Positions 33,143 to 53,888 of a stretch of DNA of 64,000 bases are shown here, in pieces. The stretch is from an uncultured bacterium (GTDB taxonomy: Bacteria > Patescibacteriota > Minisyncoccia > UBA6257 > 2-01-FULL-56-20). The position numbers and the translations under genes were made by a program. Under the pieces are notes generated by a model. The model was not told where the DNA came from. It was given only the letters and a program-made list of their open reading frames with translations, and made no database searches. Within the stretch, counting starts at the first letter, position 1. Each line of letters starts with the position of its first letter. Location of the stretch: NCBI GenBank assembly GCA_963844965.1, contig CAWJQC010000007.1, forward strand, positions 1 to 64,000, read 5' to 3'.

Positions 33143-35164
33143 TTATAAGTCTTTAGTATATTGAAGAATAACTTTTTGAACGGCCCGCGGCAATTTATTG
33201 ATGTCTTCAATGACTTCCGCGTCGGGCTTGTAGGTTTCTTTCACAGCGGCCCCAGATTCCGTCATCCCGAGTCCCAAAACAATCACTCCTTTCTCGCGAA
33301 GGGCTTTGAGATTTTTTTGAACAAGCTCCGCGTTTTCGCTTTCGCCGTCCGAGAGCACCACGATTACCTTGCGCCTTATCTTTTCTCGAATCTGTCGCTC
33401 GTCTTCTGGCGTCAACGATTTCAATACCTCATCAAGCGATAGATAATCCGGCGTTCCGCCGCCCGCGTTGTGCATTTTCTTCCAAATTGCGATGCGGTCT
33501 TTTTCCGATAGGTCTGGCGAGAGTTTTTTGAGTTCAGCGTCCCCGAAGTCGCCGAACGCTCTCGTTTCGGTTCTCACGCCCAAGCCAACCGGCGTACCGC
33601 TTTCGTACTCGGCCTCCTCAATTTCTTTTTGGAAATCCGCAAGCGATTCCAAGAAGAGAAGCTTGCTCTTCCGGTCCATTTCCAATTTTGATCCCTCGTT
33701 CATGGAACCGGACAGGTCGTTGATCAGGGTCATGTCAAGCGCACCGTATCCTTCCTCCTCCCGTTCTTTGCGCTCGACTTCTCGGAATGCCCTCGGCTCG
33801 CCGCCGCTTTTTGATTCAATGTACGCTTCCGCGATCGCGCCACCTTCTATTTCCTCTCCTTCCCTCTGAAGTTGTGGCCGCACTTTCCAGCGCCGCCGCA
33901 ATCTCCTTGTCACCACTTGTTTGAACACTTCTCGGAGTTCGGCGATGAGCGGTGCGATTTCTTTATATTCATTCCGATAGCCAATTATGTCCTCAGGGCT
34001 TACATTATGCTCTTTGGCCCACTGTTCAAGGATGCTTTGATCAAGCGACGGCATTCCGCCCCGTTCTTTCACGATCGTCTCCATTGTTTTCATGATTTTC
34101 TCCTCGTCTTTCGCGGATAACGGCTCGGGGTGCACATCTTCGTAAGTTTTATATTGCTTCTTGAAATTTTTTTCCGCTTCTTTTCGCGCCGCGCTCTCGC
34201 TCCCCTTATCTTTTTTCTTGTCTTTCTCTTTCCCGCCCTCTTCCTCTTTGCCCTTGCCGGCCTCGGCTTCTTTTTTCTTTTTGAATTTGTCCCACCATTT
34301 TTTATCCTGCTTTTGCTCGCCTTGTCCCCCCTGCCCTTCTTGAGGTTGGCCTTCTCCGGCCTCTTCCTGCCCCTTCCCTTTTTTACCCTTACCTTTCTGC
34401 GTTTCTTTCTCCAGGTCCTTGCGATAGAGCTCCATATAAACCGGCTCGACAACCTGGCGCATAAGCCTGAAGCGATCGCGCGGCTCTATCGTAGGAGTGG
34501 TTACGAGATCCAAAATATCCGTCTTGTCGCCGCCGAAGCTTCTGAGCTTATCGAGCGCTTCTTGGGCTTCGGGACCCACCATAACCTTTTCATCGGGGAC
34601 CATCATCTGACGTATAAAGCCGTAGACGAACTGGACGTGGGCCGCCAGTTCTTGTTCTTGCCCGGTCTTCGGGTCTTCCAGGCGTCGGTAGTCCGTCGCC
34701 GGAAACATTTTCTCTTTATATAAAGTTCGGCGCGTCTCCTCCAAAAATGGTAGTTCGGCGACGATACGCCGATTACCAAGCACATCTTCAAAAATATTAT
34801 GAAGGATGTGGAGCTGCGGTTTTTGCTGGCTGTATCGCTTCGCTTCTTTGAGTATGAACTCGGGGTCTCTCAAGAGCTCGCCGTAATGAGCCATAAGTTC
34901 GTGGGTTGTCGCAAAAAGGGTTTCTTTGAGATTGTAGCCGCGCTCGATAAAAAAGTTAGGATCGTAAATTAGCCGACGGTTTTCAAAATCGAACGCCCAG
35001 CCGTTATTGCCCCTATCAAGCGTGATATCGCCGCGCATGCCGTACGCGCCGAGAATCTCGCCCTCTCTATCGAAAAACGCTTCAATTTCGGATGGCGGCG
35101 CCTCCTTTTTCTCAGCGAGGACGGTATTCTCCTCTGGCGGTTTTTCTGGCGAGAATTTAGTCAC
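33143..35164 (-). CDS. vWA-domain protein with a highly charged Lys/Glu/Gly-rich central region
   Basis: C-terminal von Willebrand A domain with the MIDAS motif DLSGSM. Confidence 0.75.
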   Translation of the reverse strand: MTKFSPEKPPEENTVLAEKKEAPPSEIEAFFDREGEILGAYGMRGDITLDRGNNGWAFDFENRRLIYDPNFFIERGYNLKETLFATTHELMAHYGELLRDPEFILKEAKRYSQQKPQLHILHNIFEDVLGNRRIVAELPFLEETRRTLYKEKMFPATDYRRLEDPKTGQEQELAAHVQFVYGFIRQMMVPDEKVMVGPEAQEALDKLRSFGGDKTDILDLVTTPTIEPRDRFRLMRQVVEPVYMELYRKDLEKETQKGKGKKGKGQEEAGEGQPQEGQGGQGEQKQDKKWWDKFKKKKEAEAGKGKEEEGGKEKDKKKDKGSESAARKEAEKNFKKQYKTYEDVHPEPLSAKDEEKIMKTMETIVKERGGMPSLDQSILEQWAKEHNVSPEDIIGYRNEYKEIAPLIAELREVFKQVVTRRLRRRWKVRPQLQREGEEIEGGAIAEAYIESKSGGEPRAFREVERKEREEEGYGALDMTLINDLSGSMNEGSKLEMDRKSKLLFLESLADFQKEIEEAEYESGTPVGLGVRTETRAFGDFGDAELKKLSPDLSEKDRIAIWKKMHNAGGGTPDYLSLDEVLKSLTPEDERQIREKIRRKVIVVLSDGESENAELVQKNLKALREKGVIVLGLGMTESGAAVKETYKPDAEVIEDINKLPRAVQKVILQYTKDL

Positions 35165-35201
35165 GTTGTTTTGTTTATTATACCGCTTATACGCAAAAAA
35201 A

Positions 35202-36278
35202 TCAAATGATTTTCTTTATCATTTCCAGCCGCACCCCGCGAGACCGAGAATGCTTCACGAGCCCCAAATACGAGATGAAAGAATCTTTATTGAAACCGTT
35301 ATCCAATTTTTGGAGCATTCTCCGTTTTGTTTTTGTGCGCAAAATGCGGTGATGCGGAAAACAAACAAATCCGAGAAAATCTACGCCCTGATGATATTTT
35401 CTTATGGAAACTTTTTTGGGGTGCAGCTCGAGTTTGAGGTTTGCGTTAAGAAAATCGCTGATTTTTTCGATGTAGCTCGACAGAAGTTCCTTGTCCCTGT
35501 CCAAAATCACGAAATCATCGCAATAGCGCATATAATATTTTGCCCGCAAGATCGTTTTTACGAATTGATCGAGCTCATTCATGTAGATATTCGCGAAGAG
35601 TTGGCTCGTAAGGTTGCCGAGCGGCAACCCCTTGCCAGCTTCTTTGCTGAAACTGTCGATAATTATTTGGAAAAGGCTGAGGGCGCGCGGATCTTGTATT
35701 CGCCGCGCAAGAAGATTCTTCAATATCCCGTGGTCAATGGAGTTGAAAAAACTTTTGATGTCGCACTTCAGGGCCCAAACTGTTTTCGTGTTGTTTTTGG
35801 ATAATTTCCAGCCAAATTTGTGCAAGCGCTCGAGCGCGGCGTGAGCCCCCTTCTCGTCCCGGCAAGCGTAAGAATCAAAAATGAAGCGCAGATCGAATAT
35901 CGGCTCGATCACCCTGACGATCGCGTGATGTAAAACCCGGTCGCGAACCGGTGCTTTGTGGATGTGTCTTTTCTTCGGATCGAACACAAAAAACGATTTA
36001 TACGCGCCATGTTGATATTTTCCGTCCTTTAGCGTATAATGCAGGCAGAAAAGGTTATCTTCAAGATTGCGGGAAAATTCCATCACTTCCAGCTTCCGCG
36101 ATTTACCTCGTAAAAACTCATACCATGCAAACAACAAATTATTAGATGAAATAATGTTTTCATACACAACATGACTATCCAAACCGTCCCCGATAGAATG
36201 TTGGACCTCCCTATTTTCCATAAAACATACGATTTTATTATTGTATTTTCCAATTACGTCGTTAAGTTTCCCAAACAC
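35202..36278 (-). CDS. diversity-generating retroelement reverse transcriptase
   Basis: RT motifs including YMRYCDDFVIL (YxDD). The DGR hallmark LPLGNLTSQLFANIYM ([ILV]GxxxSQ) replaces the QGxxxSP of group II and retron RTs. 358 aa with no maturase or endonuclease domains. Confidence 0.88.
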   Translation of the reverse strand: MFGKLNDVIGKYNNKIVCFMENREVQHSIGDGLDSHVVYENIISSNNLLFAWYEFLRGKSRKLEVMEFSRNLEDNLFCLHYTLKDGKYQHGAYKSFFVFDPKKRHIHKAPVRDRVLHHAIVRVIEPIFDLRFIFDSYACRDEKGAHAALERLHKFGWKLSKNNTKTVWALKCDIKSFFNSIDHGILKNLLARRIQDPRALSLFQIIIDSFSKEAGKGLPLGNLTSQLFANIYMNELDQFVKTILRAKYYMRYCDDFVILDRDKELLSSYIEKISDFLNANLKLELHPKKVSIRKYHQGVDFLGFVCFPHHRILRTKTKRRMLQKLDNGFNKDSFISYLGLVKHSRSRGVRLEMIKKII

Positions 36279-36551
36279 GATCGCTTCACTCTCGGCGCGA
36301 GGATAGAAAACACCGCCGTCGAACTCTTAATGCTTATCATGCGGGCGAATTACGGGCAAGCCGTAGCGCGCGTCGGTTTTTTAAACGAAGGAAGTATCCT
36401 GCTCGATATGCTCAAGGTATTCGTGCGGCTCGCGAAGGATAAGAAAGCTATACACCCGAATCAGTATTTAATGCTCGAGGAACGGTTGCAGGAAATAGGC
36501 CGCATGCTCGGCGGTTGGATAAAGTCCTCAAGTGCAAAAAGACCCGTGTGA
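36171..36551 (+). CDS. avd: Avd-like four-helix-bundle protein (DGR accessory variability determinant family)
   Basis: FPKHDRFTLGARIENTAVELLMLIMRAN and LEERLQEIGRMLGGWI match the four-helix-bundle/Avd family. Lies opposite to the RT. A probable later start at M36198. Followed by a hairpin terminator at 36536-36566. Confidence 0.65.
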   Translation: MTIQTVPDRMLDLPIFHKTYDFIIVFSNYVVKFPKHDRFTLGARIENTAVELLMLIMRANYGQAVARVGFLNEGSILLDMLKVFVRLAKDKKAIHPNQYLMLEERLQEIGRMLGGWIKSSSAKRPV

Positions 36552-36575
36552 GCGGGTCTTTTTGTGAGATACGAT

Positions 36576-36681
36576 CTGAGGGCGGAACCCCAAGTTGTCG
36601 TTCCGTTCGGCAGGGTCATCCCAGTTCACGTTGGAGAGGCCACCGTTGTCTGAGTTGCCGCCATCGAGGCGCCTCGTGCCC
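36576..36681 (-). repeat. DGR template repeat (TR)
   Basis: 106 nt. Coding-sense translation is Asn/AAC-rich (..GNSDNGGLSNVNWDDPAERNDNLGFRPQ). It is the invariant partner of VR1-3, and every VR difference maps to a TR adenine. Confidence 0.88.
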
Positions 36682-36920
36682 GGTCCCAAGCCCATCTGTG
36701 TCCCAAACCATCCAAGGCAGCGGCAATTCGCAGAAAGCGTCTTGCCTGTATAAATATGGAGCGGTATTCCTTTGTTTAAAGGAAATCCGCATAAGTTTGG
36801 AGCACGTCGTTTCTCTCGTTTGTTGGGCGAACCGACGATCCGTAGATCCGGCTACATTAGCCCGCATAAAAAATTTACACCGAAATGCCCAAAGGAGCAA
36901 CAGCCCAATCCCCAAAGTTC

Positions 36921-37799
36921 CTACTCACGAGAGAAAACAACCTGAGGGCGGAACCCCAAGTCGTCGTTCCGTCCGGCAGGGCCATCCCAGTCCACGTGGG
37001 AGAGGCCACCGCGGCCTGAGTGGCCGCCATCGAGGCGCCTCGCGCCCTTTTGGTAAGAGTCCTCGAACCATTCCCAGGTATTCGTCTCACCCCACTTGGG
37101 ATAATAAAGATTTCCCATATAGTTCCATTCAATAGCTCTTGGAAGTCTCAGGGATTCGGGCGGAACGTCGAGTGCCTCCGCGATGGCTTTTTTCACTTCC
37201 GGCTTGTTCAGCTCGTCCCAGGAGATATTATAGCGAGAGTTCTTGACTTTGAAATCCGTGATTATCTTTTTCTTTCTCAAATCCTCAAGTGTCTCTGCCA
37301 GTATGTCTTCGGCATATTTTTGTTTGCCGTCTTGATAGTTGGGCTTTTCGCGGCTGTCCACGAGAATCCACGAGGCAGGTAGTTTGAGGGTGTCTTTCGG
37401 AAGATTGCCGTTCTTTACCTCGTCAAAAAACTCGATACCCCAACTCTTATCCGGAGTGTATCGCGTGCCCGGCTTCTTTTTCCAACCAGGCAAATCGCGC
37501 TCTTCTGTTAGCTCTTCATCGGGCAAGTAATGAAGTTCAAGCCCCATTTCTTTCCACTTTTCGTATCGTTCTGGTGTGATTTCTTCCGGCAGCAGTGGAA
37601 CCTCAACGTCGTAGCCGAAGAATTCCCTGAGTTTCTCGGTTTCCTGCTCCATTAGTTCCCTGAACTCTGCCGAGGATTCGGGTGCTTTCCTTTTCTCCTT
37701 CTCCGCCTCGCCCAATGCTTTTTCCACCTTCTTTTGAACGGTGGTTTTGTACTGGTCGGGGTTATACTCTTCGTAGATTTTGTAACCGGGGAAGGGCAT
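36921..37799 (-). CDS. DGR target protein 1
   Basis: 292 aa, paralog of targets 2 and 3. VR1 lies at its 3' end. Confidence 0.8.
   Translation of the reverse strand: MPFPGYKIYEEYNPDQYKTTVQKKVEKALGEAEKEKRKAPESSAEFRELMEQETEKLREFFGYDVEVPLLPEEITPERYEKWKEMGLELHYLPDEELTEERDLPGWKKKPGTRYTPDKSWGIEFFDEVKNGNLPKDTLKLPASWILVDSREKPNYQDGKQKYAEDILAETLEDLRKKKIITDFKVKNSRYNISWDELNKPEVKKAIAEALDVPPESLRLPRAIEWNYMGNLYYPKWGETNTWEWFEDSYQKGARRLDGGHSGRGGLSHVDWDGPAGRNDDLGFRPQVVFSRE
36942..37047 (-). repeat. DGR variable repeat VR1
   Basis: 10 mismatches to the TR, all at TR adenines. Confidence 0.85.
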
Positions 37800-37888
37800 G
37801 GTGTCAAATGAATGGTCTTATTTGTTTATTGTTATAAAATTTTTTTTGAAAGCCTACCAAAGAAACAAGAGAACAATTGTCAAAGTTC

Positions 37889-38737
37889 CTACTCACGAGA
37901 GAAAACAACCTGAGGGCGGAACCCCAAGCTGCCGAGCCGCTCGGCAGGGTCATCCCAGTCCACGTGGGAGAGGCCACCGAGGCCTGAGCCGCCGCCATCG
38001 AGGCGCCTCGCGCCCTTTTGGTAAGAATCTTCAAACCATTCCCAGGTATTGGTATCGCCCCACTCGGGGTGATAGGCGTTGCCGATAACGTTCCATTCAA
38101 TCGCTCGCGGCAGGCGGAGACACTCTTCGGGCACGTCCATTGCCTCCGCTATGGCCTTTTTGACTTCGGGCTTATTCAGTTCGTCCCAGGAGATGTTGAA
38201 GCGGGAGCCTTTCGTCTCAAAGTCCGTAATAATCTTCTTTTTCCTCAAGTCCTCTAAGACGGGTCTGAGGACGTCGTCCTTATATATTTGCTTGCCGCTC
38301 TCGTACTTCGGCTTCCCGCGGGTGTCGACGAGAATCCAGGCGTCGGGGAGCTTAGCAGCATCGGCAGGGATTTCGTTCGCCTCTAAGCGGCCATAAAACC
38401 AATCTCCAGGTTTCTTTTTCCACCCCGGGAAAGCGGCATCCTTCCTCATCTCTTCCGGGGGAAGGTAGTGCAATTCAAAACCCATCTCTTTCCATTTTTC
38501 ATAACGCTCGGGGGTAACTTCATCGGGTAAGGGCGGGACTTCAACCTCATGACCGAAGAAAGTGCTGAGAGATTCTGTCTCGCGATCTACCAGTTCCCGG
38601 AATTCCGCTGATTCCGGCGTCATTCTCCCTTTCTCCTTCTCCGCCTCGCCCAGTGCTTTTTCCACCTTCTTCTGGACGGTGGTTTTGTACTGGTCGGGGT
38701 TGTACTCTTCATAGATTTTGTAGCCGGGGAAGGGCAT
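37889..38737 (-). CDS. DGR target protein 2
   Basis: 282 aa paralog. The N-terminal 200 aa are ~80% identical to targets 1 and 3. Confidence 0.8.
   Translation of the reverse strand: MPFPGYKIYEEYNPDQYKTTVQKKVEKALGEAEKEKGRMTPESAEFRELVDRETESLSTFFGHEVEVPPLPDEVTPERYEKWKEMGFELHYLPPEEMRKDAAFPGWKKKPGDWFYGRLEANEIPADAAKLPDAWILVDTRGKPKYESGKQIYKDDVLRPVLEDLRKKKIITDFETKGSRFNISWDELNKPEVKKAIAEAMDVPEECLRLPRAIEWNVIGNAYHPEWGDTNTWEWFEDSYQKGARRLDGGGSGLGGLSHVDWDDPAERLGSLGFRPQVVFSRE
37900..38005 (-). repeat. DGR variable repeat VR2
   Basis: 13 mismatches to the TR, all at TR adenines. Confidence 0.85.
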
Positions 38738-40860: not shown

Positions 40861-41421
40861 ATGGAAGAGCAAACAAAGAAATGCAGGGAGTGCAAGTCGG
40901 ACATTCCGGCTGGCGCCAAGCGATGTCCCAGCTGCCGAGCGGATCAAAGGAACTGGTTGATGCGCCATAAAGCCTTAACTGTCGTGGTGATATTTATAGC
41001 GCTCATTATCATAGCCATGGTTGCTGGTAGTAATAGCAATAACCCTAAACAGGTCGGCAATAACAGCCAGCCAGTCCCATCATCCCAAGAGCAGACGTTC
41101 AAGGTCGGCGATCACGTCCAGATGGGAAGCGATATCATAACGGTGAACAGCGCGGAGTTTTCGAGCGGTACAGAATTCGCAAAGCCAGCCGCTGGGAACA
41201 CCTGGTTAGACGTCAATCTGACGATACAAAACACGGACAACGCCCAGCAGTATATAACGACCATGGGACAGATGTTTGTTAAGGATTCCGACGGCAACAG
41301 TTACAACGTTTCGCCCACGGACAAAGAATTACAAAATCCATCGCTTGGCATGGACGGCCCGATTCTTGCCAACAGCAAAAAGACCGCTTGGGTAGGGTTT
41401 GTAAAGGATAGGTTTCTTTAG
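40861..41421 (+). CDS. zinc-ribbon/TM/DUF4352-like protein; its last 6 codons lie inside an IS3 terminus
   Basis: N-terminal CxxC...CxxC, one TM, then a beta-rich extracellular domain. The C-terminal ..VKDRFL* is encoded by the IS3 end TGTAAAGGATAGGTTTCTTTAG. Confidence 0.55.
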   Translation: MEEQTKKCRECKSDIPAGAKRCPSCRADQRNWLMRHKALTVVVIFIALIIIAMVAGSNSNNPKQVGNNSQPVPSSQEQTFKVGDHVQMGSDIITVNSAEFSSGTEFAKPAAGNTWLDVNLTIQNTDNAQQYITTMGQMFVKDSDGNSYNVSPTDKELQNPSLGMDGPILANSKKTAWVGFVKDRFL

Positions 41422-41456
41422 ACAGTGATTCGACGGCTTTTTGCCGTTTTTTTTCG

Positions 41457-42239
41457 TTAAGCCGCAATCTTCTCGGCAAACACGGACGGCGGCATCTTGA
41501 GGGCGGAGTGGATCCGCGTGTGGTTGTACTGCCACAAGGTGCTGTAGATCTCCGCCACGAGCTCGCCGAAGGTCCCGAACCGGTTGGGATCACCGAGGTC
41601 AATCTTGAACTTGTCATAGAACGATTCCTGGTAGCCGTTTTCCCATGGGGCACCGGGCCGCGACCGCGAGATCGTGATGCCACAGTCCCCCAGTGTATCG
41701 GTGAACGCTCGTGCCTTGTACTCGCTGCCGTTGTCCGAATGGAAGATGACCGGATGCGGATGGTGGAAAAGCGCGTTGGCCAGGGTCTGTATCGTGAGGG
41801 GCGATCCTTTCCGCAACGCCACATGGACGCCCATCAATCGTCTCGTGAAAAGATCGAGTATCGTGGACACGTACACTTTCTTGCCGCGATACAGGAACTC
41901 CGTGAAATCGGTTGCCCAGACGTGGTTCGCGTACGAGGGCATGATGGCAAGTAAGAGGTTCGGAAAGGCCCGCGATGCCTTTGATTTCCGGTATTTCCTG
42001 CCTCGCCTCCGGTACGGCCTTATGCCGAAGATTCGCATGACGCGCTGCGCTCGCGGACGGCTCACGCCCAGAGCTTGTCCCAAGCGCCGGGAACCGTATG
42101 CCGGATGGCGCTGCAATTCTTCTTCCATGCGGATCTTGAGCGCCCAATCTTTCTTGTCCTGCCGTGATACGTAGTAGAGCGATGCCCGCGAGACGCCCAT
42201 GGCCCGCGCCATGGCGGACTTGTTCCGCTTTTCCGTCAA
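41457..42239 (-). CDS. IS3 transposase OrfB (DDE integrase core)
   Basis: HSDNGSEY and PWENGYQESF motifs. 260 aa. Confidence 0.9.
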   Translation of the reverse strand: MTEKRNKSAMARAMGVSRASLYYVSRQDKKDWALKIRMEEELQRHPAYGSRRLGQALGVSRPRAQRVMRIFGIRPYRRRGRKYRKSKASRAFPNLLLAIMPSYANHVWATDFTEFLYRGKKVYVSTILDLFTRRLMGVHVALRKGSPLTIQTLANALFHHPHPVIFHSDNGSEYKARAFTDTLGDCGITISRSRPGAPWENGYQESFYDKFKIDLGDPNRFGTFGELVAEIYSTLWQYNHTRIHSALKMPPSVFAEKIAA

Positions 42240-42499
42240 TTCTTTTTTTGGGCCTGGGAGAGCTTCACGGTGAGCTCGCCCACCACTTCAAACAGCTCCC
42301 TGTTCTGCTTCTGGAGACGGCTGAACTCGCCCCAGGAAGGGACGCCCGATGCTCCTGCGCCTAGCCAATTGTAGATGGTGGACTCGTGCAAACCGTGGTC
42401 CTTCGCAGCCTGCGCTACGGGGACTCCTTCTTCCTTCACCCGGCGGAGGATGTCCGCCTTCACTTCCTTCGCAATCCGATGCCCTTTTTTGTTGCTCAT
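42236..42499 (-). CDS. IS3 transposase OrfA (HTH)
   Basis: 87 aa. Overlaps orfB at AAAAAAAG, the -1 frameshift site. Confidence 0.9.
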   Translation of the reverse strand: MSNKKGHRIAKEVKADILRRVKEEGVPVAQAAKDHGLHESTIYNWLGAGASGVPSWGEFSRLQKQNRELFEVVGELTVKLSQAQKKN

Positions 42500-42531
42500 G
42501 ACACAATGGTAGTTTGTTTCGACCTTTGTGT

Positions 42532-43794
42532 CTAAATTATCCTATCCGGGTCAATGGTTAAGTCGCAGAATGCCGGTTCCAATTCGACCGTATAGACCCG
42601 GCGCTTAAGTTGTTCACCTGCAATCAGCGTGCTGCCGCTGCCGCAAAAGCTGTCCAAGATAATGTCTCCCGGACGGCTGCACCTGCGGATCGCTTTTTCA
42701 TGGAGCGCTGGCGGCTTGGACGTAGCGTGCTGATATTCGTTGCCCGCGAGTCGCTTCACGAGCCAGATGTCAAGCAAATCCAGGATGTCGTCAATGAGCC
42801 TGTTGCCCGTGGAGAGTTCCTTGTTCTGGATCTCGTTGAGCGACTGGAGGCCCTTCGCGAGATACGGCTTGCCGCGGACGCCGTAGACGGCGGGTTCATA
42901 GCACTTCGAGAAAGCGACCTCGGGAGTGGGGTTCTGGCCGTTTTTAATCCAGAGGCAGACGCGCTTGTTTTCAAGGCCGAGTTCCGCGTAGAGTGTCTGC
43001 AGGAGCCAGATATAACGCTGGTCGCACCAATAAAAGACATGCATATCGTCTTTCGCGACGGCGAGGGCGTTTACGAGGCTCTTCCGGAGAAACTCTTTGT
43101 ACTCGTCGTCAGTCCGCGTGTCGTTGACGCTACCGCCGTAGTTGGCATGTCCGCCGACGCCCTTCGCATAATCCACGCCGCCCTTCAGGTTATAGACCGG
43201 ATCGGAATAAATGACGGATGCCTTCTCGCCGCCAAAAAGCTTTTTGAGGACGGCGGGGTCTGTTGAATCGCCGCAAGCTAATTTATGAGGGCCTAGCGAG
43301 AATATGTCGCCGAGCTTTGTTTTCGGTTTTTTGATCTTGGCGAGCTCGCGTTCGACATTGAACTCATCGTCCTGAACTTCCGCGATGTCGTCCCAGAGGT
43401 GCGACAGCTCTTCGTCTTTAAATCCGATTTCAAGCAATAGCTCGGTGTCGAAGGTGCGTAATAGCTCGTATGACCAGTCTCCGCGCACGGCATTTGAGGT
43501 GAGCAAGTATTGCTCAAACTCGTGTTTCGTCAATTTCCGGTTCGGCACGCGCACTTCTATTTCTTCGCTCCCTCGGCCAAGGAGCTGAAGGGCCTTCAAC
43601 CTTTGATGACCAGCTATGATCGTGCCGTCCGTGTCGATCGCGGGAAGTTCTACGACGTTGAATTTCGTCAGGCTCTTCTTAAGGGCCTCGAGCTGAGCCT
43701 CGCCGATGGTGCGGGGATTTTTGGAAAACGGGACGAGTGAGTTAATCGCTCTCTTCTCCGTGTGCCAGATTAGCGATATGTGTTTTCTAGCCAT
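42532..43794 (-). CDS. ParB-like nuclease domain fused to an N6/N4 DNA methyltransferase
   Basis: N-terminal ParB/Srx-like (..AGHQRLKAL..), then DPVYNLKG (DPPY-like) and FCGSGSTLIAGEQL. The last ~7 codons (..DPDRII*) are encoded by the IS3 terminus. Confidence 0.8.
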   Translation of the reverse strand: MARKHISLIWHTEKRAINSLVPFSKNPRTIGEAQLEALKKSLTKFNVVELPAIDTDGTIIAGHQRLKALQLLGRGSEEIEVRVPNRKLTKHEFEQYLLTSNAVRGDWSYELLRTFDTELLLEIGFKDEELSHLWDDIAEVQDDEFNVERELAKIKKPKTKLGDIFSLGPHKLACGDSTDPAVLKKLFGGEKASVIYSDPVYNLKGGVDYAKGVGGHANYGGSVNDTRTDDEYKEFLRKSLVNALAVAKDDMHVFYWCDQRYIWLLQTLYAELGLENKRVCLWIKNGQNPTPEVAFSKCYEPAVYGVRGKPYLAKGLQSLNEIQNKELSTGNRLIDDILDLLDIWLVKRLAGNEYQHATSKPPALHEKAIRRCSRPGDIILDSFCGSGSTLIAGEQLKRRVYTVELEPAFCDLTIDPDRII

Positions 43795-44054
43795 TGTTGA
43801 TAATTTTTAATTTGTTCGACGACATAACGACTGCATTCCCACCCGACCGATTTTTCCTCTGACCATTCACGAAGGGTTGACAACGTGACATCAGTCGAGA
43901 TCGCAAACGCTTTTATCTGCTCCGGCGTCGCGTCGCGTACGGCGGCCCGCCAGTGGATGAATGCCGAGCGTCGCGCCAGTTCGTCGTATTTTCCGCGCCG
44001 GATGACGATCGGTTCCCGTGCCGTCGGCACTTTTTCGGGGCTTAGATATTGCAT
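43770..44054 (-). CDS. hypothetical protein
   Basis: 94-aa ORF in the IS-flanked cargo. Confidence 0.35.
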   Translation of the reverse strand: MQYLSPEKVPTAREPIVIRRGKYDELARRSAFIHWRAAVRDATPEQIKAFAISTDVTLSTLREWSEEKSVGWECSRYVVEQIKNYQQWLENTYR

Positions 44055-44168
44055 ATAAATGTAAATTTATTTTTCGACTCTTTGCCTCATGAAAAATTTG
44101 AGGCATGACCGTTCGGTCATACCTCTATCGAAGCACAAGCTCCTGTGGATATTCGGGAAAAAAGTAGA

Positions 44169-45098
44169 CTACTCTTTCCCGAAGCGCTTATCCCTCAATT
44201 CCTGCAGCAACCGGGCCGCCTCGGCGATTCGCTTGCCATCAGGCTTCCCTTTGATAAGTTTTTGCTCTATGGCGGTCTTGGCGAGTTCGTCGAGGGTGGT
44301 GTGGTAATACGCGCCGCGCTCGTTATTCTCGGCGTGATCCCAATGGTCGCGGTCTCCCATGACCCACTGCTCAATGGTCAATTTGTTATCGATGTCTTTA
44401 ATGGGATTAAACTTAGCGAGGCGGCGCTTGCCCCAGTAGGTGAGATAGCGTTTAAGTTCCTCGAAGTCTTCGTCGGTAAGTTGAGCATATACGTTTACGG
44501 GCACATACCGCATATCTTTCGATCGCGCGCCCGGCGGCCATGCGCCACCCTGAAAACTGCTCATGGGGGCGTTAATACTCCCGTTCAAAATATATTGCTG
44601 AATAAACCAGCCGAAGTGTTCCGGCGCGTTGAATCGTGCCGCGATATAGCGTGGCATTTCATGGAGATAATAGCTTGGGTTTTTGAAGTTCAGCATCTTC
44701 CGGCGTAGTTTCGCAGCATCGAAATCTTTCTGCGCTTTTTCTCGGTCTTGTGCAGTGGCGTTTTTGTCTCGCGATAACTCATAACAGACCTTCCGGCACT
44801 TCTCGATTTCGGCGTTTGCGTCGCGCTCGCTTTTCTGGAATTCGAGGGAATCCAAGACTGCTTCGGAGCGTTCCAGAAGGCAGTCGCCCCATCCAACGTG
44901 TCGCTTGTCATTTTTATCAGTGGGGATATCGAGAAATTCCCGCGCTTCCGCGACGAACTCTTGGAACGGCTTGTGGGAAATGAGCAGCTTCATCATGTCG
45001 AGATTCTTCCTGTGGGATGGAAATTTGCCGTTCAGCCATCCCGTCGCCATTCTCTTGGCCGGAGACTTTTTCTTTGTTTTACGTTTCGCTTTGGGCAT
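44169..45098 (-). CDS. hypothetical protein (basic N-terminus)
   Basis: 309-aa ORF in the cargo with no recognisable motif. Confidence 0.45.
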   Translation of the reverse strand: MPKAKRKTKKKSPAKRMATGWLNGKFPSHRKNLDMMKLLISHKPFQEFVAEAREFLDIPTDKNDKRHVGWGDCLLERSEAVLDSLEFQKSERDANAEIEKCRKVCYELSRDKNATAQDREKAQKDFDAAKLRRKMLNFKNPSYYLHEMPRYIAARFNAPEHFGWFIQQYILNGSINAPMSSFQGGAWPPGARSKDMRYVPVNVYAQLTDEDFEELKRYLTYWGKRRLAKFNPIKDIDNKLTIEQWVMGDRDHWDHAENNERGAYYHTTLDELAKTAIEQKLIKGKPDGKRIAEAARLLQELRDKRFGKE

Positions 45099-45147
45099 TG
45101 TAAGCTAATGGTAATTCCCTAGTTTTGGAAAAGCAATTTACCTCATT

Positions 45148-45795
45148 ATGGATAAAGAAAAGCAAGAACAAGAAATTGAAGAGACTGCGTCGACAAATCA
45201 ATCCAAGAAGCCACGCAAATTAAAAGCGCGTTTACTGCGCCTTTATTACCTCGCCGTTTGGAACAGTACCCTCCGCAAAGATCGCTGCGTACAGTGGTTT
45301 CGGCGATATGCGCACGCCCTACGCGAAATTTTTATCTTAATAGTCACGATCGTTGCGGCTTGGTCTATCACGCAATTCATCGACATTTCTTCAATTTCGA
45401 CGAATAACTTGGCGAGTTGTTTTGTCGCGGTTGGTGCGATGATCGGTGGCGTCATAGCCATCGTGTTTTCGCTCTCGATTTTTGCCCAGCAAAGCAGCGC
45501 CGATCTTTATTCATCCCAGTATTTCGAGGTGTATGCCCACGATTGGAAAGAGAAGATGACGTATTCGTTAATTGTGCTCATAACGATTGCGTTCTTCGTC
45601 GGCGGAATCATTTTTTACGGCAACGCGAACTTGGCCACGGTCTATAAGTATGTCGGTGTGTATGCATCGCTGATCTTAATAGGAACCGTCTTCATTTTGG
45701 TCGATTGGCAGTACCGAAACGTAACGTCGAAGGCTAATCCCATTAAAGCGCTCAACTTTCTCGAAAGGCAATCTGACCCGGATAGGATAATTTAG
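45148..45795 (+). CDS. hypothetical membrane protein; its C-terminal ..DPDRII* is encoded by the IS3 terminus
   Basis: 215 aa with 4 TM helices. The stop lies 22 nt inside IS3 copy 3. Confidence 0.45.
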   Translation: MDKEKQEQEIEETASTNQSKKPRKLKARLLRLYYLAVWNSTLRKDRCVQWFRRYAHALREIFILIVTIVAAWSITQFIDISSISTNNLASCFVAVGAMIGGVIAIVFSLSIFAQQSSADLYSSQYFEVYAHDWKEKMTYSLIVLITIAFFVGGIIFYGNANLATVYKYVGVYASLILIGTVFILVDWQYRNVTSKANPIKALNFLERQSDPDRII

Positions 45796-45827
45796 ACACA
45801 AAGGTCGAAACAAACTACCATTGTGTC

Positions 45828-46091
45828 ATGAGCAACAAAAAAGGGCATCGGATTGCGAAGGAAGTGAAGGCGGACATCCTCCGCCGGGTGAAGGAAGAAG
45901 GAGTCCCCGTAGCGCAGGCTGCGAAGGACCACGGTTTGCACGAGTCCACCATCTACAATTGGCTAGGCGCAGGAGCATCGGGCGTCCCTTCCTGGGGCGA
46001 GTTCAGCCGTCTCCAGAAGCAGAACAGGGAGCTGTTTGAAGTGGTGGGCGAGCTCACCGTGAAGCTCTCCCAGGCCCAAAAAAAGAATTGA
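45828..46091 (+). CDS. IS3 transposase OrfA
   Basis: Identical to the orfA at 42236-42499. Confidence 0.9.
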   Translation: MSNKKGHRIAKEVKADILRRVKEEGVPVAQAAKDHGLHESTIYNWLGAGASGVPSWGEFSRLQKQNRELFEVVGELTVKLSQAQKKN

Positions 46092-46870
46092 CGGAAAAGC
46101 GGAACAAGTCCGCCATGGCGCGGGCCATGGGCGTCTCGCGGGCATCGCTCTACTACGTATCACGGCAGGACAAGAAAGATTGGGCGCTCAAGATCCGCAT
46201 GGAAGAAGAATTGCAGCGCCATCCGGCATACGGTTCCCGGCGCTTGGGACAAGCTCTGGGCGTGAGCCGTCCGCGAGCGCAGCGCGTCATGCGAATCTTC
46301 GGCATAAGGCCGTACCGGAGGCGAGGCAGGAAATACCGGAAATCAAAGGCATCGCGGGCCTTTCCGAACCTCTTACTTGCCATCATGCCCTCGTACGCGA
46401 ACCACGTCTGGGCAACCGATTTCACGGAGTTCCTGTATCGCGGCAAGAAAGTGTACGTGTCCACGATACTCGATCTTTTCACGAGACGATTGATGGGCGT
46501 CCATGTGGCGTTGCGGAAAGGATCGCCCCTCACGATACAGACCCTGGCCAACGCGCTTTTCCACCATCCGCATCCGGTCATCTTCCATTCGGACAACGGC
46601 AGCGAGTACAAGGCACGAGCGTTCACCGATACACTGGGGGACTGTGGCATCACGATCTCGCGGTCGCGGCCCGGTGCCCCATGGGAAAACGGCTACCAGG
46701 AATCGTTCTATGACAAGTTCAAGATTGACCTCGGTGATCCCAACCGGTTCGGGACCTTCGGCGAGCTCGTGGCGGAGATCTACAGCACCTTGTGGCAGTA
46801 CAACCACACGCGGATCCACTCCGCCCTCAAGATGCCGCCGTCCGTGTTTGCCGAGAAGATTGCGGCTTAA
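46088..46870 (+). CDS. IS3 transposase OrfB
   Basis: Identical to the orfB at 41457-42239. Confidence 0.9.
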   Translation: MTEKRNKSAMARAMGVSRASLYYVSRQDKKDWALKIRMEEELQRHPAYGSRRLGQALGVSRPRAQRVMRIFGIRPYRRRGRKYRKSKASRAFPNLLLAIMPSYANHVWATDFTEFLYRGKKVYVSTILDLFTRRLMGVHVALRKGSPLTIQTLANALFHHPHPVIFHSDNGSEYKARAFTDTLGDCGITISRSRPGAPWENGYQESFYDKFKIDLGDPNRFGTFGELVAEIYSTLWQYNHTRIHSALKMPPSVFAEKIAA

Positions 46871-46929
46871 CGAAAAAAAACGGCAAAAAGCCGTCGAATC
46901 ACTGTCTAAAGAAACCTATCCTTTACAGG

Positions 46930-47675
46930 GCACGGAATATGGCGAAGGCGGTCATCTTGTCATCCCGACGCTTTCATCGCGGCCGCACCATCATCCACGC
47001 GAACTCGACCGAGCGGTCATTGGCCGCATCCTTGCACTTCGCAGCGAACGGGACCAATGCGCGGAGATCGTCCATCACCGGCTAGAAGAGGAAAAGATTG
47101 CCGTTAGCCTTTCGTCCGTGAAGCGTACACTCAAACGCCACGGTATCACGCGATATTCAAAATGGAAGAAGTGGCACCAGTATCTTCCGCGTCCCATGCC
47201 CACAAAGCCAGGCATATTGGTTGAGATCGATTCAATGCAAGAAGGTATTGCCATGGACCACCTCCATGCGTACGCCTTGATCGACGTATGTTCCCGTTGG
47301 GCGTGGGCATGGCCAGCCGCCCAGGTCTCAAGCCGCTTAAGCGCACGGTTCGTCCAGCAAGCGCAAGCGGCAGCTCCGTTTCCTTTCGTCACAATCCAAT
47401 CCGACCGTGGCGGGGAGTTTTCAAAATGGTTTACCAAGGTCATCGAGCATCAGGGATTTTCACATCGCCACTCGCGCGTACGGACGCCAACAGATAACAG
47501 CCATGTGGAACGGTTCATCCAAACGCTTCAGCGGGACTGTTTACGACGTATCCCTAACACTCTTGCCGCGTGGCGCAAGGAGATTCCCGATTTTCTTCAC
47601 TACTACAATACCGAACGGCCGCACATGGGACTTGATATGAAAACGCCCGTCGAGTGGTTAGAAGCTATTGATTAG
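46930..47675 (+). CDS. IS481-like DDE transposase (integrase core); the N-terminus is apparently truncated by the adjacent IS3 insertion
   Basis: HTH-like LSSVKRTLKRHGI, then a DDE core (..IQSDRGGEF.., ..NTERPHMGL..). No start codon lies between the IS3 end (46927) and the HTH. The ORF track fuses it to an antisense IS3 frame (ORF 46503-47675). Confidence 0.6.
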
Positions 47676-47691
47676 AAAGCATCACCGCGGG

Positions 47692-48129
47692 CTAAAGCCC
47701 GCGGCTTGTGTTCGGCTCCTGTTCCCACTGGTTTCTGATATATTCTCTCATCGCTTTTTCGTTTTGACGGCCAACGGTTTCGGCAAAGTAACCATCCTGC
47801 CACAAGCTGTCTCCCCAGAGGAATTCTTCCAGCTCGGGAAATTCTTTTCTGACAGCCCTGGACGTACCGCCTTTGAGATAAAACACCGCTTTGGCAACCG
47901 TCAGGGTAGCAGGAATTTGAAGCAATAGATGGACATGGTCGGGCATTATCTGCGCTTCATGGATGAACCATTTATTCATCTTGGCGGCTTGAAAGAACAA
48001 TGTCTTGAGTCGCCCGACCATGTCCCCTCGCAGTATCGAGCGGCGGTACTTTGGGCAGAAAACAACGTGGTACAAACATCGCGTATAGCTGTGGTTGCTT
48101 GGCCAGAATCCAGAGGGCATTATCTTCAT
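47692..48129 (-). CDS. tnpA: IS200/IS605-family transposase TnpA (HUH Y1)
   Basis: YHVVFCPKYRR, HUH motif DHVHLLL and catalytic Y in ..GYFAETVG. 145 aa. Confidence 0.85.
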   Translation of the reverse strand: MKIMPSGFWPSNHSYTRCLYHVVFCPKYRRSILRGDMVGRLKTLFFQAAKMNKWFIHEAQIMPDHVHLLLQIPATLTVAKAVFYLKGGTSRAVRKEFPELEEFLWGDSLWQDGYFAETVGRQNEKAMREYIRNQWEQEPNTSRGL

Positions 48130-48581
48130 TATCGCACCGGCAGAAACCAGTGGGAACAGGCAAATAAGCCCTCCGCCCCTCGCTTCGCTCGGGGCTACGG
48201 GGTCGCCTTATCCTCGGCCTAAAGGCCGGGGCTTGCGGCGGAGCGGGTCAAATGAGAAACCTCCCACATGCCTCTTTTTTGCCCCAAATGCCCCAAATGA
48301 TCACCGACCGCGGTGCTTCAGGAGCTGGCAAAGCATCTCAAAATGCTTTATATTTCCGTCATAGCCCCGCGACCAGGGTGCTTCGGAAAGGAGTGGAAGG
48401 GTAATCATCAAAATCCCTCAATAACCTTGTGAAACCTCGCTAGGAATACACCCTTAAAAGTTCGACACCGCACGGGGGGCAGGCAGGCCTCCAAGGCGCA
48501 CACCATCGTGGCTCTTGCTTCTGGCTCTGCGGGGGTTTAAGCTATTCGTAGTCCTATTTTTATTTTTACACGGAGACATGA

Positions 48582-49235: not shown

Positions 49236-49554
49236 TCCCCCCCAGTCGTTCTTCGGCGGGGGATTTTGATTTTTATCATTGCTTTGGTATTATTTGATTT
49301 GTGCGGAACGCCGATTCTGCCTTCGTTCTGAATTTTTGGGTGTGTAGTTCAGTGGCACCCCGTAGCAAAATTTGGGCACATAGTTCAGCTTGCCCCGCCA
49401 AATTTTACCAGTTAGTAAAATTTGGCGGGGTGAAGTAGAACGTCCCGATATTTGCAAAATTTTCAATTTTGCTAAAATATCGAGGATCCGCGATTTTGCT
49501 TTTCTGTCGCACCGAAAGCAAAATCGGGACTGTCCTGACCCCGCACCAAATTAT

Positions 49555-50566: not shown

Positions 50567-52177
50567 ATGTCTGATACGCCCGGTTTCATAGGGGGAGCTA
50601 TGCGCAAGGGTCTTCTTGTTGCCCTATTGGCCTTCATTGTGCTCGCCGGTCTGACCATCTCGATCGGCTTGTATTATTATCGATTTATAAATCAGCAGCT
50701 TACTTTGAGCGTTTACAATCACCGGCTGGTTGTCGCGAGCCTGACCGCATCCGGAATCAAGTTGAAATTGGACCATCTTGAGGGGATCGCGATATCTTTC
50801 GCGGCGCAGGACGACATGCGCGCAGAAATTATTGGCGGCAGATGGGAAGACGCCATGGCTAAGGCCGAGGACCTCTCCAACAGCCCAGATTTTTATGATT
50901 ACTACATAGACAGAACCTTATTGGTGGACGCCTCGGGAGCCATAAGAGCTGCCTATCCGCTCCTTAGCGGAACCATGGGTTTGCCCAAGTCAAATTTTAA
51001 GGAGTGGAGCGTTCCCCTTGAGAACGGGCAGGCCGCGTATGTTTCCGATGTCTATGAAAGGTCCGTCTCCCCGCGGATTAATGTCGTTGACGTCGTCGCG
51101 CCGGTTGCGGCGCACTCCGTTATTTACGGCTTCGTCGTTCTGCAGGTGCCCATCAATGAATTTTCCGATTTCGGCCAGGATACCGACATCAGCTCCAACG
51201 GTTTTGCCTACATAGTTGACAGGAAGGGTCAGATTGTATATCACCCGAAATATTCTTCCGTCGGTCCCATTGTTGACTATTCGGAGGTGCCGGCTGTGCA
51301 AAAATTGCTCAGCGGCGAAACCGGAATCGGAATTTTATCCAATCCGATTGAGAGAACGGAGAGAGTGTCGGCTTACGAATTGGTGCCGACATACGGGTGG
51401 GGCGTTGTGTCCGTGGAGCCGACCGCGGACGCGTTTGAGGCGCGGAATAGCATTTTGCACCAGATTTTGCTGGCCATTTCGGTTTTATGCGCATCAGAGC
51501 TTTTCCTGGCGATTTTCATTTTTTGGCTGGTTACGAGGTCCGAGAGAAGCAAACCGAACGCGGGATACGCGAGACAATTTCCGAAGACGCCGCCGAGGGC
51601 CAGCGGAGGGTTCACGCTGATAGAACTTTTGGTCGTTATCGCCATTATCGCCGTTTTGTCCATAGTCGTCATCCTGACCCTTAATCCGACGGAACTTCTG
51701 CGCCAGGCGAGGGATTCCGACAGGATTTCGGATCTCTCCATAATAAAGAGCGCCATTTCTATTTATTTGGTAGACCTGCGCAATCCGATTATCGCTTCCT
51801 CTACGGAATACTGCTACGAATCGGTCTTGGCAGCGAACGTCACCACTACCTACAGCACTTGGTTTCCCTCAATCCCACTCGGCAATGCGACTACTTCTCC
51901 GCAAGCTACCTACAGAAATATTGACGGCACGGGCTGGATTCATGTGAACTTTACCCAAATCAGCGCCGGCACGCCCTTCGGCCAGCTTCCGATCGACCCC
52001 TTGAATAACGCACAGTATATGTATATGTATGTAGGCAGTTCCACGCAGTCCACATTCAAACTCGCTACGGATATGGAAAGTTCAAAGTACGGCAATGGCG
52101 GAGCAGCGGACGTTGAGTCAAAAGACGGCGGCACTGACCCGAATAAATACGAAGCCGGAAGCAATCTCAATTTGTAG
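50567..52177 (+). CDS. in-frame fusion: TM/Cache-like periplasmic domain/TM followed by a type IV pilin (prepilin motif GFTLIELLVVIAIIAV)
   Basis: Residues 1 to about 330 are 2 TM helices flanking a Cache-like domain. Residues from about 345 are a pilin paralogous to 52349-52954 and 53262-53888, with no intervening stop or start codon. Confidence 0.55.
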   Translation: MSDTPGFIGGAMRKGLLVALLAFIVLAGLTISIGLYYYRFINQQLTLSVYNHRLVVASLTASGIKLKLDHLEGIAISFAAQDDMRAEIIGGRWEDAMAKAEDLSNSPDFYDYYIDRTLLVDASGAIRAAYPLLSGTMGLPKSNFKEWSVPLENGQAAYVSDVYERSVSPRINVVDVVAPVAAHSVIYGFVVLQVPINEFSDFGQDTDISSNGFAYIVDRKGQIVYHPKYSSVGPIVDYSEVPAVQKLLSGETGIGILSNPIERTERVSAYELVPTYGWGVVSVEPTADAFEARNSILHQILLAISVLCASELFLAIFIFWLVTRSERSKPNAGYARQFPKTPPRASGGFTLIELLVVIAIIAVLSIVVILTLNPTELLRQARDSDRISDLSIIKSAISIYLVDLRNPIIASSTEYCYESVLAANVTTTYSTWFPSIPLGNATTSPQATYRNIDGTGWIHVNFTQISAGTPFGQLPIDPLNNAQYMYMYVGSSTQSTFKLATDMESSKYGNGGAADVESKDGGTDPNKYEAGSNLNL

Positions 52178-52348
52178 ATATATTTGCAAATGTGTCTTCG
52201 CGCGCTACTTCCCGCACCTCCTCAGGACGGGTTTTCGGTTATCCACAGAGGCGGTTATGAAGACGTGAGCGGTTTGTTACAATTAAGATTGTTGGTATTA
52301 GCAAAACGAAAAAGGTCGATTTGACGCGATGTTTAGTGTGAAATAAAC

Positions 52349-52954
52349 ATGTCAAAGAAAACCAATAAAGGTTTTACGCTCGTTGAGCTTCTGGTTGTTA
52401 TCGCCATTATCGCCGTAATGTCCATAGTCGTCATTTTGACCCTTAACCCGGCGGAACTTCTGCGCCAGTCAAGGGATTCCAACAGAATTTCGGATATGGC
52501 GACGCTTAAGAGCGCGATGTCGCTCTACCTCGCGGATGTGAACGCGCCGTACCTCGGGACAAGTACCTGGTGTTATCAGGATGTAAGCGCGGCAAACGCC
52601 GCTACCGCGGGCACGAGCTCGAATTCCTGCAATGCTACGTTCGGTAATAATCCCGCCACAAATGCCGTGAGCAATGTGGCTTCTCCGAGGAATGTGGACG
52701 GCACGGGCTGGATTCCGGTTAATTTCTCCAAAATCAGCTCCGGCGCTCCGTTCGGCCAGCTTCCGATTGACCCCCTGGACAATGATGCGTTGCACCTGTA
52801 TCTCTACAAGACATCGAGCACGCTTCTCACTTTCCACATTGCAGTAAAGATGGAAAGCGCGAAGTACAGCTATCCTTCAGCCACCAATATTGAGGGTACC
52901 GATGGCGGCACCTCGCTTACCGAGTATGAAGTTGGAAATAATTTGAGCTTGTAA
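52349..52954 (+). CDS. type IV pilin
   Basis: Class III signal MSKKTNKG|FTLVELLVVIAIIAV. Conserved upstream motif GGTCGATTTGACGCGAT. Confidence 0.85.
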   Translation: MSKKTNKGFTLVELLVVIAIIAVMSIVVILTLNPAELLRQSRDSNRISDMATLKSAMSLYLADVNAPYLGTSTWCYQDVSAANAATAGTSSNSCNATFGNNPATNAVSNVASPRNVDGTGWIPVNFSKISSGAPFGQLPIDPLDNDALHLYLYKTSSTLLTFHIAVKMESAKYSYPSATNIEGTDGGTSLTEYEVGNNLSL

Positions 52955-53261
52955 CGTCTGCGGACGGCAAGCCAGTCCGATTCTTGGCTTAAGAACGTGA
53001 GCGCTCCGACCAAAGTCGGAGCGCTCACGTTTCTGCGTTGCCAGAACATCGTTCCGACCGCGGAAATATGCGGCGGCTCGGTTTCTGAGGCCGGCTCCAT
53101 CTTTGCTTTCGTTGATTTGCGCGAGCGGTATGGCCATAAATTGGGCTTTTGGGTTATCCACAGAGCATTCTGCGGATAAGGGGGAGATTTGCTATAATGT
53201 ATTTGTTGGTATTAACCAAACAAGAAAGGTCGATTTGACGCGATATTCACACAAAACGAAT

Positions 53262-53888
53262 ATGTCAAAGAAAACCAGCAAAGGTTTTACACTTATTGAA
53301 CTTTTGGTCGTTATTGCCATTATCGCCGTCTTGTCCATAGTCGTCATCTTGACCCTTAACCCCGCGGAACTCCTGCGTCAGGCGAGGGATTCCAACAGAA
53401 TTTCGGATATGTCCGTGGCGAAGAGCGCGATTTCGCTCTACCTCGCGGACGTGAGCTCGAATATCTCTATCGGGAGCACAACACCGTTCGTATACTGCTA
53501 TGAGGATGTTTCTGCGGCAAATGCGACCACTAATGGCACTACTTCGGCGAGTTGCAAAAGTGGTGTGGCAGGCGCAGAAACGTTTGCGAGCGACATAAGC
53601 TCCTCTAGCAACGCGGTTACTCCCAGAAACGTTGACGGCACGGGCTGGATTCCGGTTAACTTCACTAAAATCAGCTCCGGCGCGCCAATCGGTCAGCTTC
53701 CGGTTGACCCGTTAGATAATGACGGCATGCACATGTACCTCTACAGAACGAGTTCAACCCTCGTTTTCAAGATGGCGACAAAGATGGAAAGCTCTAAGTA
53801 CAGCAAGGGCGGCGCAGGTGACGTTGAGTCAACCGATGGCGGCACTAATACTGGCATGTATGAATCGGGAACCAATTTGAGTTTGTAG
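53262..53888 (+). CDS. type IV pilin
   Basis: MSKKTSKG|FTLIELLVVIAIIAV. Same upstream motif as the 52349 pilin. The ORF-track start at 53103 is probably an upstream extension. Confidence 0.85.
   Translation: MSKKTSKGFTLIELLVVIAIIAVLSIVVILTLNPAELLRQARDSNRISDMSVAKSAISLYLADVSSNISIGSTTPFVYCYEDVSAANATTNGTTSASCKSGVAGAETFASDISSSSNAVTPRNVDGTGWIPVNFTKISSGAPIGQLPVDPLDNDGMHMYLYRTSSTLVFKMATKMESSKYSKGGAGDVESTDGGTNTGMYESGTNLSL

Follow-up and report, generated by a model that had tools for sequence, protein, structure and literature searches.

Insertion sequences (IS) leave deletion and rearrangement scars in IS-expanded genomes, as is the case for IS481 in Bordetella pertussis, IS407A in Burkholderia mallei, IS100 in Yersinia pestis and IS1 in Shigella. 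Pairs of one IS may also bound composite transposons, such as those of the Tn5/Tn10 type with their inverted arms; composites of IS3-family elements are rare. An IS2-like element of Burkholderia thailandensis forms a megacircle from directly oriented copies, the circle carrying a single IS and inserting beside an IS already present, and according to its authors no IS2-containing composite had been reported earlier (PMC6350997). Here we examine a stretch of 64,000 nt (the window) of contig CAWJQC010000007.1 from an uncultured member of the Patescibacteriota, in which two identical, inverted copies (A and B) of an IS assigned to the IS3 family enclose several genes. A sequence-only reading of this stretch had described the arrangement as a composite-transposon-like unit. 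We have defined the anatomy of the IS and the identity of its copies, and find that four flanking genes are truncated at their ends, that the missing gene parts are absent from the window and that target-site duplications (TSDs) are absent. In our judgement A and B are probably IS-bounded rearrangement scars, produced by deletion in a degraded integrated element, rather than the arms of a composite that arrived as one unit.

The locus shares features with both kinds of described system. As in Tn5/Tn10-type composites and the B. thailandensis megacircle, an identical IS pair surrounds a few kilobases of unrelated genes and the inner junctions cut genes; unlike them, the unit in the window has no TSD, is not seen elsewhere in protein-level look-ups, has outer flanks that are non-contiguous and carries a gene-fragment remnant with no evident selectable function. 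As in the scars of B. pertussis, B. mallei, Y. pestis and Shigella, identical TSD-less copies join unrelated truncated genes, IS elements are nested within one another and a prophage or island is eroded. The host in the present case differs from those IS-expanded genomes in being a small-genome bacterium of the candidate phyla radiation (CPR) type.

A compact IS3-family element and its copies

The inverted, identical pair recognized in the sequence-only reading is confirmed by repeat search and script comparison, with a small correction to its limits. Copies A and B are 100% complementary over 1154 nt each and are separated by a spacer of 3220 nt; the boundaries first proposed (41399-42553 and 45773-46927, 1155 bp) take in one extra base at one end of each copy, since position 41399 is unpaired with 46928 and 45773 is unpaired with 42554. 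A degenerate third copy, C, which had escaped the initial reading, lies at the very start of the window and brings the copy number to at least three in 64 kb.

41400-42553, minus strand: IS copy A; right inverted-repeat (IRR) end at 41400 and left inverted-repeat (IRL) end at 42553; orfA 42236-42499, orfB 41457-42239; Pfam HTH_Tnp_1 and rve/rve_3
45774-46927, plus strand: IS copy B; IRL TGACCCGGATAGGATAATTTAGACA; IRR (reverse complement) TGTAAAGGATAGGTTTCTTTAGACA; orfA 45828-46091, orfB 46088-46870
1-1150, minus strand: IS copy C, degenerate; the window opens 2 nt inside its IRR end

Judged by its coding and terminal features, the element is a divergent, compact member of the IS3 family, and the initial family assignment is upheld by the orfA/orfB layout, the slippery site, the terminal dinucleotides and the profile score alike. 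OrfA (87 aa) matches Pfam HTH_Tnp_1, whereas OrfB (260 aa) matches Pfam rve and rve_3 and scores 189.8 bits against the NCBIfam equivalog model NF033516 transpos_IS3 (cut-off 160); its second-best NCBIfam model is that for IS481, which at 86 bits falls under that model's own cut-off. The orfB gene lies in the -1 frame and overlaps orfA at ..CCC AAA AAA AGA.., where the heptamer A_AAA_AAG (46079-46085 in copy B) would allow a -1 slip and is predicted to yield a 347-aa OrfAB product. The DDE residues of OrfB are D111 (within WATD), D169 (within HSD) and E205. The termini read 5'-TG...CA-3' and form imperfect inverted repeats of about 26 bp, in which 18 of the first 26 positions match, the matches being concentrated at the tip (TG, GGATAGG, TTTAGACA). 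The G+C content of the IS is 57%, compared with about 50% in its surroundings.

This combination of a helix-turn-helix OrfA, a DDE-type OrfB at -1, the A_AAA_AAG heptamer and TG...CA ends is that of IS911, IS3, IS600, IS150 and IS2, and one relative of the window IS (at locus L002) also has a 3-bp TSD. Members of the family characteristically make TSDs of 3-5 bp and transpose in a copy-out-paste-in manner, by way of a circular intermediate with an IRR-IRL junction. Unlike these named members, the window IS is short (1154 bp), its OrfB reaches no more than about 33% identity with the best matches listed among IS3-family transposases from plasmids, and TSDs are missing in almost all of the copies examined.

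Full-length relatives with 74-78% nucleotide identity were found mostly in metagenome-assembled genomes (MAGs) of the Patescibacteria/CPR type, together with one record labelled Acidobacteriaceae and seven metagenome contigs. The ends of the window IS coincide with the ends in 17 full-length relatives, and the boundaries are therefore fixed. TG..CA ends of a similar kind are found in a wider clade (about 50% amino-acid identity) that extends over many Patescibacteria lineages. Eight related copies of 1159 bp, 100% identical to one another and with 75% nucleotide identity to the window IS, reside in one of the Patescibacteria-type genomes, OY970216.1 (loci L002-L008), which was deposited as a complete chromosome of 804,691 bp. 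A literature search on IS3 elements in Patescibacteria returned nothing relevant.

Copy C differs from A and B by a reduction of the slippery run from A7 to A6, by one other 1-nt deletion and by three substitutions. Its 346-aa open reading frame (ORF; 56-1096) was considered as a natural in-frame OrfAB fusion and rejected as such: the frame is scrambled between the two 1-nt deletions, and NCBIfam and Pfam transposase matches are restricted to residues ~10-79 and 275-335. The start of the window inside this error-bearing copy suggests that the contig was broken at this repeat. Copy C directly adjoins the final 39 codons of a membrane-protein gene with a lycopene-cyclase domain (1151-1270; Pfam Lycopene_cyc positions 62-91 of 92), and a copper/heavy-metal P-type ATPase gene (1278-3797) starts 127 nt beyond the IS.

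Truncated genes at the four junctions

Each end of copies A and B meets a gene that is incomplete on the side facing the IS. We refer to these junctions as J1 to J4.

40861-41421, plus strand: DUF4352 gene (J1), cut by the IRR end of copy A; native to 41399 (residue 180), the last 6 codons (VKDRFL, then stop) coming from the IS
42532-43794, minus strand: ParB-like/N6_N4 DNA methyltransferase gene (J2), cut by the IRL end of copy A; native down to 42554 (residue 414), tail DPDRII and stop
45148-45795, plus strand: "membrane protein" gene (J3), cut by the IRL end of copy B; native to 45773 (residue ~208), tail DPDRII and stop
46928-47675, plus strand: IS481-like transposase gene without its 5' end (J4), abutting the IRR end of copy B; Pfam rve, rve_3 and partial HTH_32

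That the first three of these genes run into the IS and finish with IS-encoded residues had been seen from the sequence, and it is borne out by the ORF list and the boundary sequences, which read ..AWVGF-VKDRFL at J1, ..CDLTI-DPDRII at J2 and ..LERQS-DPDRII at J3 (hyphens mark the junctions, and the serine codon at J3 spans its junction). The truncation at 46928 was not part of the initial reading. The homologues of the three genes do not end in these residues and continue differently beyond the junctions, as is evident from each gene in turn.

At J1, the Pfam DUF4352 match comprises profile positions 1-100 of 122, and homologues (P0123, with 84% identity and 209 aa, P0124 and others, one of which has 68% identity and 204 aa) extend 29 residues past the junction with EVKQGAKGLQFEYQASMFGGKTAVIDLGM, so that the window gene is short by 29 native codons. 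Homology between the window and locus L099 stops at 41400. In L099 the DUF4352 gene is of full length, and a convergent diversity-generating retroelement (DGR) reverse transcriptase and bAvd come 48 nt after it, whereas the window has those genes 5 kb to the left of DUF4352; hence, the DNA across copy A is not the ancestral neighbour. Locus L073 was considered as an empty site for J1 and rejected, since it is 84% identical over 162 nt only and resembles a chimeric short contig; it just confirms that homology ends at J1.

At J2, the catalytic domain of the methyltransferase is nearly whole, with Pfam N6_N4_Mtase profile positions 3-219 of 221 located at residues 194-413. Comparison with PHROGs places a ParB-like domain at residues 11-146 and relates the protein to the phage methyltransferase phrog_498 and also to phrog_620. 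Eleven aligned homologues (420-434 aa) continue with xRYExLTxxKAKK, and the window gene is short by about 9-20 native codons.

For J3, an earlier word-based search with the 215-aa ORF matched only the query itself, and an exhaustive HMMER search was needed to recover its 137 relatives. The closest full-length relatives measure 813-832 aa within a family of about 760-830 aa, and the alignments run to query residue 208 at homologue positions ~190-225. By this comparison the ORF is only the first quarter of what would be a gene with some 800 codons. Of the cargo originally listed between the IS copies, namely a ParB-nuclease-methyltransferase fusion, two hypothetical proteins and a membrane protein, the last is thus present as about a quarter of a gene. 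At J4, the IS481-like gene aligns with NCBIfam transpos_IS481 profile positions 37-282 of 284, at least 36 N-terminal positions being gone. The missing parts of the truncated flanking genes, including the remaining ~600 aa of the J3 protein, were found neither across the same IS nor anywhere in the 64-kb window.

The sequence-only reading had offered two explanations for the IS-encoded tails, that the element inserts preferentially into the 3' ends of genes or that it has trimmed the genes it abuts. Homologue lengths at J1, J2 and J3 bear out the latter. The former is not supported: the J3 gene is broken off after 208 of ~800 residues, or about 25%, J4 removes a 5' end and the tails are an automatic consequence of the IS ends. 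Reading inward from each end, stops are encountered in all three frames within 22 nt; the IRL-end frames give an immediate stop, TRIG-stop and DPDRII-stop, and the IRR-end frames CKG-stop, an immediate stop and VKDRFL-stop. Because both IS ends stop all three frames, any ORF that enters gains at most six IS residues. The same effect is seen in a relative, where a LamG gene ends ..GLI-VMDRFL. A preference for one reading frame among the entering ORFs was also considered, the three window ORFs and the LamG gene sharing the same offset, and was rejected on finding that other relatives use all three; we have treated the shared frame of the window ORFs as chance.

Two further genes lie in the cargo.

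43770-44054, minus strand: hypothetical 94-aa gene, syntenic with a 98-aa gene upstream of the L072 methyltransferase; no Pfam or PHROG match
44169-45098, minus strand: hypothetical 309-aa gene, with likeness to L072 in its first ~10 codons and upstream region only; no Pfam or PHROG match

Locus L072 encodes an 84%-identical methyltransferase in an IS-free, prophage-like region, with a second methyltransferase gene and a terminase-like gene coming after it; the locus also has large serine recombinases. The synteny between the window and L072 comprises the methyltransferase, the 94-aa gene (43848-43973 against L072 7823-7948, 45% identity by tblastx) and the promoter region of the 309-aa gene, and it ends exactly at the IS junction. 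With regard to the cargo outside IS flanks, which the initial reading had proposed to look for, the nearest methyltransferase locus is free of IS, and the synteny covers only a portion of the cargo. The J3 ORF (215 aa) was considered as the N-terminus of a 1162-aa gene at the same position in L072 and rejected, there being no similarity.

Beyond J4, immediately adjacent to the IS481-like fragment, lies one further transposase gene.

47692-48129, minus strand: IS200/IS605-family Y1 transposase gene (Pfam Y1_Tnp, 9e-39; NCBIfam transpos_IS200, 130.8 bits, cut-off 55)

Together with copy B and the IS481-like fragment it makes up a nest of three IS types (46928-48160). An inverted repeat of 20 nt without mismatches (47718-47737 and 48141-48160) overlaps the 3' coding end of the Y1 gene and the region upstream of its start.

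Target-site duplications and the origin of the junctions

The lack of TSDs noted in the sequence-only reading is upheld with the corrected boundaries. There is none at copy A, whose flanks in IS orientation are CAT and AAC, none at copy B (ATC and GGG) and none around the whole IS-cargo-IS unit, whose outer flanks are GTT and GGG. This lack extends to the group as a whole. For 18 of the 19 full-length copies no TSD signal rises above a null of mismatched flank pairs, and among the OY970216.1 copies one of the eight has a TSD and the other seven are without. The exception (L002:3767-4925) is a clean insertion with a 3-bp TSD, ATG standing on either side, and joining its flanks minus 3 bp restores a LamG C-terminus ending ..DGYFNGLIDDVRIYNRALSAAEVSAIYNAQK and stop. 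Since the IS group is able to make the 3-bp TSD expected for IS3, the finding that neither A nor B has one points to secondary events.

Mismatched flanks are a recurrent feature of the relatives. At L079 the IS is flanked on one side by the 5' part of a Dam-like methyltransferase gene and on the other by a 5'-truncated rve transposase; at L010 it is flanked by a tyrosine recombinase without its C-terminus; at L005 an IS copy adjoins a fragment of a second one. Flanks are likewise mismatched in most of the relatives on short contigs, and many of the relatives' metagenome contigs end within the IS. A solo 84-nt fragment of the IRL end is common to L096 (2068-2151) and L078 (1370-1453) with 94% identity; it stops in orfA and gives way to unrelated DNA, and is another IS-bounded deletion scar. 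L002 contains two directly oriented IS copies 1371 bp apart. A 5-bp ATGAG "TSD" around this pair was examined as a sign of composite transposition, since the joined flanks seemed to restore an ABC-transporter ORF, and was rejected as a chance match, the joined ORF fusing the LamG gene to the 3' part of an ABC-transporter gene.

The history that we consider the most economical, and probable, begins with a small, divergent IS3-family element of the Patescibacteria/CPR type, which would have multiplied in the genome through insertions that include four independent events: in the DUF4352 gene, in the 3' end of the methyltransferase gene, in the ~800-aa membrane-protein gene and in an IS481-like element. 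Two recombinations between directly oriented copies would each have deleted the intervening DNA and left a hybrid IS whose flanks do not match and which lacks a TSD. Copy A would thus descend from the insertions in the DUF4352 3'-region and the methyltransferase 3'-end, and copy B from those in the membrane-protein gene and the IS481-like element, leaving the 3.2-kb cargo as the remainder between two deletions; phage-like genes such as those located after the L072 methyltransferase may have been among the DNA lost. The same outcome could also have been reached if transposase activity had been directed at the end of an IS already in place. We infer the order of events and the mechanism of deletion in part from the orientations of the gene fragments, because these fit one deletion between two direct copies for each IS.

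Several points weigh against this history. Partner junctions carrying the deleted 3' and 5' pieces, or the scars of such junctions, were not found in the 64-kb window. Moreover, TSD-less copies, including the identical set in OY970216.1, are too frequent for a comfortable explanation by later recombination alone, and their frequency would also be compatible with a mechanism that belongs to the element itself, or with chimeras made in assembly. Two inversion models were also considered. The idea that an inversion between A and B had produced the mismatched flanks was rejected by reasoning, as the swap restores no gene and no TSD pair (CAT, AAC, ATC, GGG, GAT), and intramolecular replicative inversion was rejected because the complementary TSDs that it predicts are absent.

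An artefact of assembly could account for some or all of the junctions if the assembler had joined the flanks of different copies of this 1.15-kb repeat, or had collapsed the DNA between direct copies. The opening of the window 2 nt inside an indel-bearing IS copy, as at a repeat-broken contig end, fits such an origin, as do the contigs of relatives that end in the IS and the mismatched flanks on short contigs. We nevertheless hold this to be unlikely: seven of the eight copies lack TSDs also in a sequence deposited as a complete chromosome, the assembly of a 331-kb contig runs through both of the internal identical 1154-bp repeats, which hints at reads that span them, and flipping the 3.2-kb segment would, by reasoning, restore no gene. 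It is about equally improbable, in our estimation, that insertion by this IS clade intrinsically yields no regular TSD, or removes neighbouring DNA, such that the truncated flanks are the primary product. The 18 TSD-less copies speak for such a mode, as do the eight identical OY970216.1 copies, which point to a recent burst and of which seven are yet without TSD, and so do the unrelated truncated genes at L079 and L010 and the neighbouring copy fragment at L005. A possible route would be recombination between an IS circle and either the end of a resident copy or sequences resembling the inverted repeats; end-targeted insertion has been described for IS911. The B. thailandensis megacircle, in turn, inserts beside a resident IS (PMC6350997). 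Set against this, the single clean insertion at L002 has a 3-bp TSD and restores an ORF, and chimeras from short reads could inflate the TSD-less count. It is tempting to speculate that a CPR-specific IS3 clade may transpose mostly by a TSD-less route that joins non-contiguous DNA, the junction pairs in the window then being primary products, but this too we regard as doubtful.

The geometry of a composite transposon is present, in that two copies of one IS enclose cargo, and the earlier proposal finds no support beyond it. In such a case a 5.5-kb unit, made up of the 3.2-kb segment and both IS copies, would have moved in by way of its two outer IRR ends. The two copies are indeed intact and identical, with intact ends, and the inner junctions of the cargo are truncated genes; furthermore, IS3-family elements of the IS2-like type can mobilise DNA between two copies, as in the B. 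thailandensis megacircle (PMC6350997). That megacircle, however, has direct copies and a one-IS circle, and both outer ends of the present unit are IRR. No TSD is present at the outer flanks, although the group makes 3-bp TSDs, and these flanks are the 5' part of the DUF4352 gene and the 3' part of the IS481-like gene, remnants of two unrelated genes and not of a single interrupted target. In protein-level look-ups the junction proteins P0001, P0121 and P0122 form singleton clusters on one contig of 331,718 bp, and the unit is not seen elsewhere. True composite transposition has the least support among the rival explanations, and we consider it very improbable.

The putative surrounding island and the reach of the element

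Copies A and B, read here as probable deletion scars, lie in a putative degraded island, which extends from tRNA-Val (28111-28183) and a large serine recombinase gene (28330-29673, minus strand) to the IS nest, with tRNA-Ile coming directly afterwards. Within it are a methyltransferase that is split and has an Mrr-like domain, a DGR, and AAA_5 and VWA proteins; phage structural genes and att sites were not identified in the window. The N6_N4 methyltransferase is split over 30702-31328 and 31408-32175, the second ORF bearing an Mrr_cat nuclease domain, and the region 28111-32175 may represent the edge of an integrated element with a disrupted restriction-modification fusion gene. The DGR (32231-38737) consists of a reverse transcriptase (35202-36278, minus strand), an Avd-like ORF (36171-36551, plus strand), a template repeat (36571-36681) and three variable repeats (32281-32391, 36937-37047 and 37905-38015) at the 3' ends of three paralogous genes (290, 292 and 282 aa). 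Mismatches between the template and variable repeats fall almost entirely at template adenines (11 of 12, 11 of 12 and 14 of 15).

Other repeats are present in the window. A 36-nt direct repeat (25277-25312 and 49442-49477, 89% identity) recurs 24 kb apart, its second copy just upstream of tRNA-Ile, and could be either a shared promoter or regulatory motif or the att-like borders of the island. Three repeats of ~200-300 nt within 51579-53745 extend across three tandem paralogous genes (about 52349-53888), and three 97-nt repeats with 74-80% identity lie within 17711-19814.

Taken together, our findings define a compact 1154-bp IS3-family element, with its exact ends and its frameshift site, that occurs commonly in Patescibacteria MAGs, where it interrupts the assemblies. 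Three annotated genes of the window are IS-truncated chimeras, one of them only a quarter of a gene, and the IS-bounded scars in this degraded island, as we read them, illustrate the erosion of mobile DNA in a small genome. For specialists, the point of interest is the near-absence of TSDs over 19 copies, eight of which are identical and reside in one closed genome. If a TSD-less mode of transposition were true of this element, each event would delete or rearrange host DNA, and the element would be a direct driver of gene loss in genomes that are already minimal.

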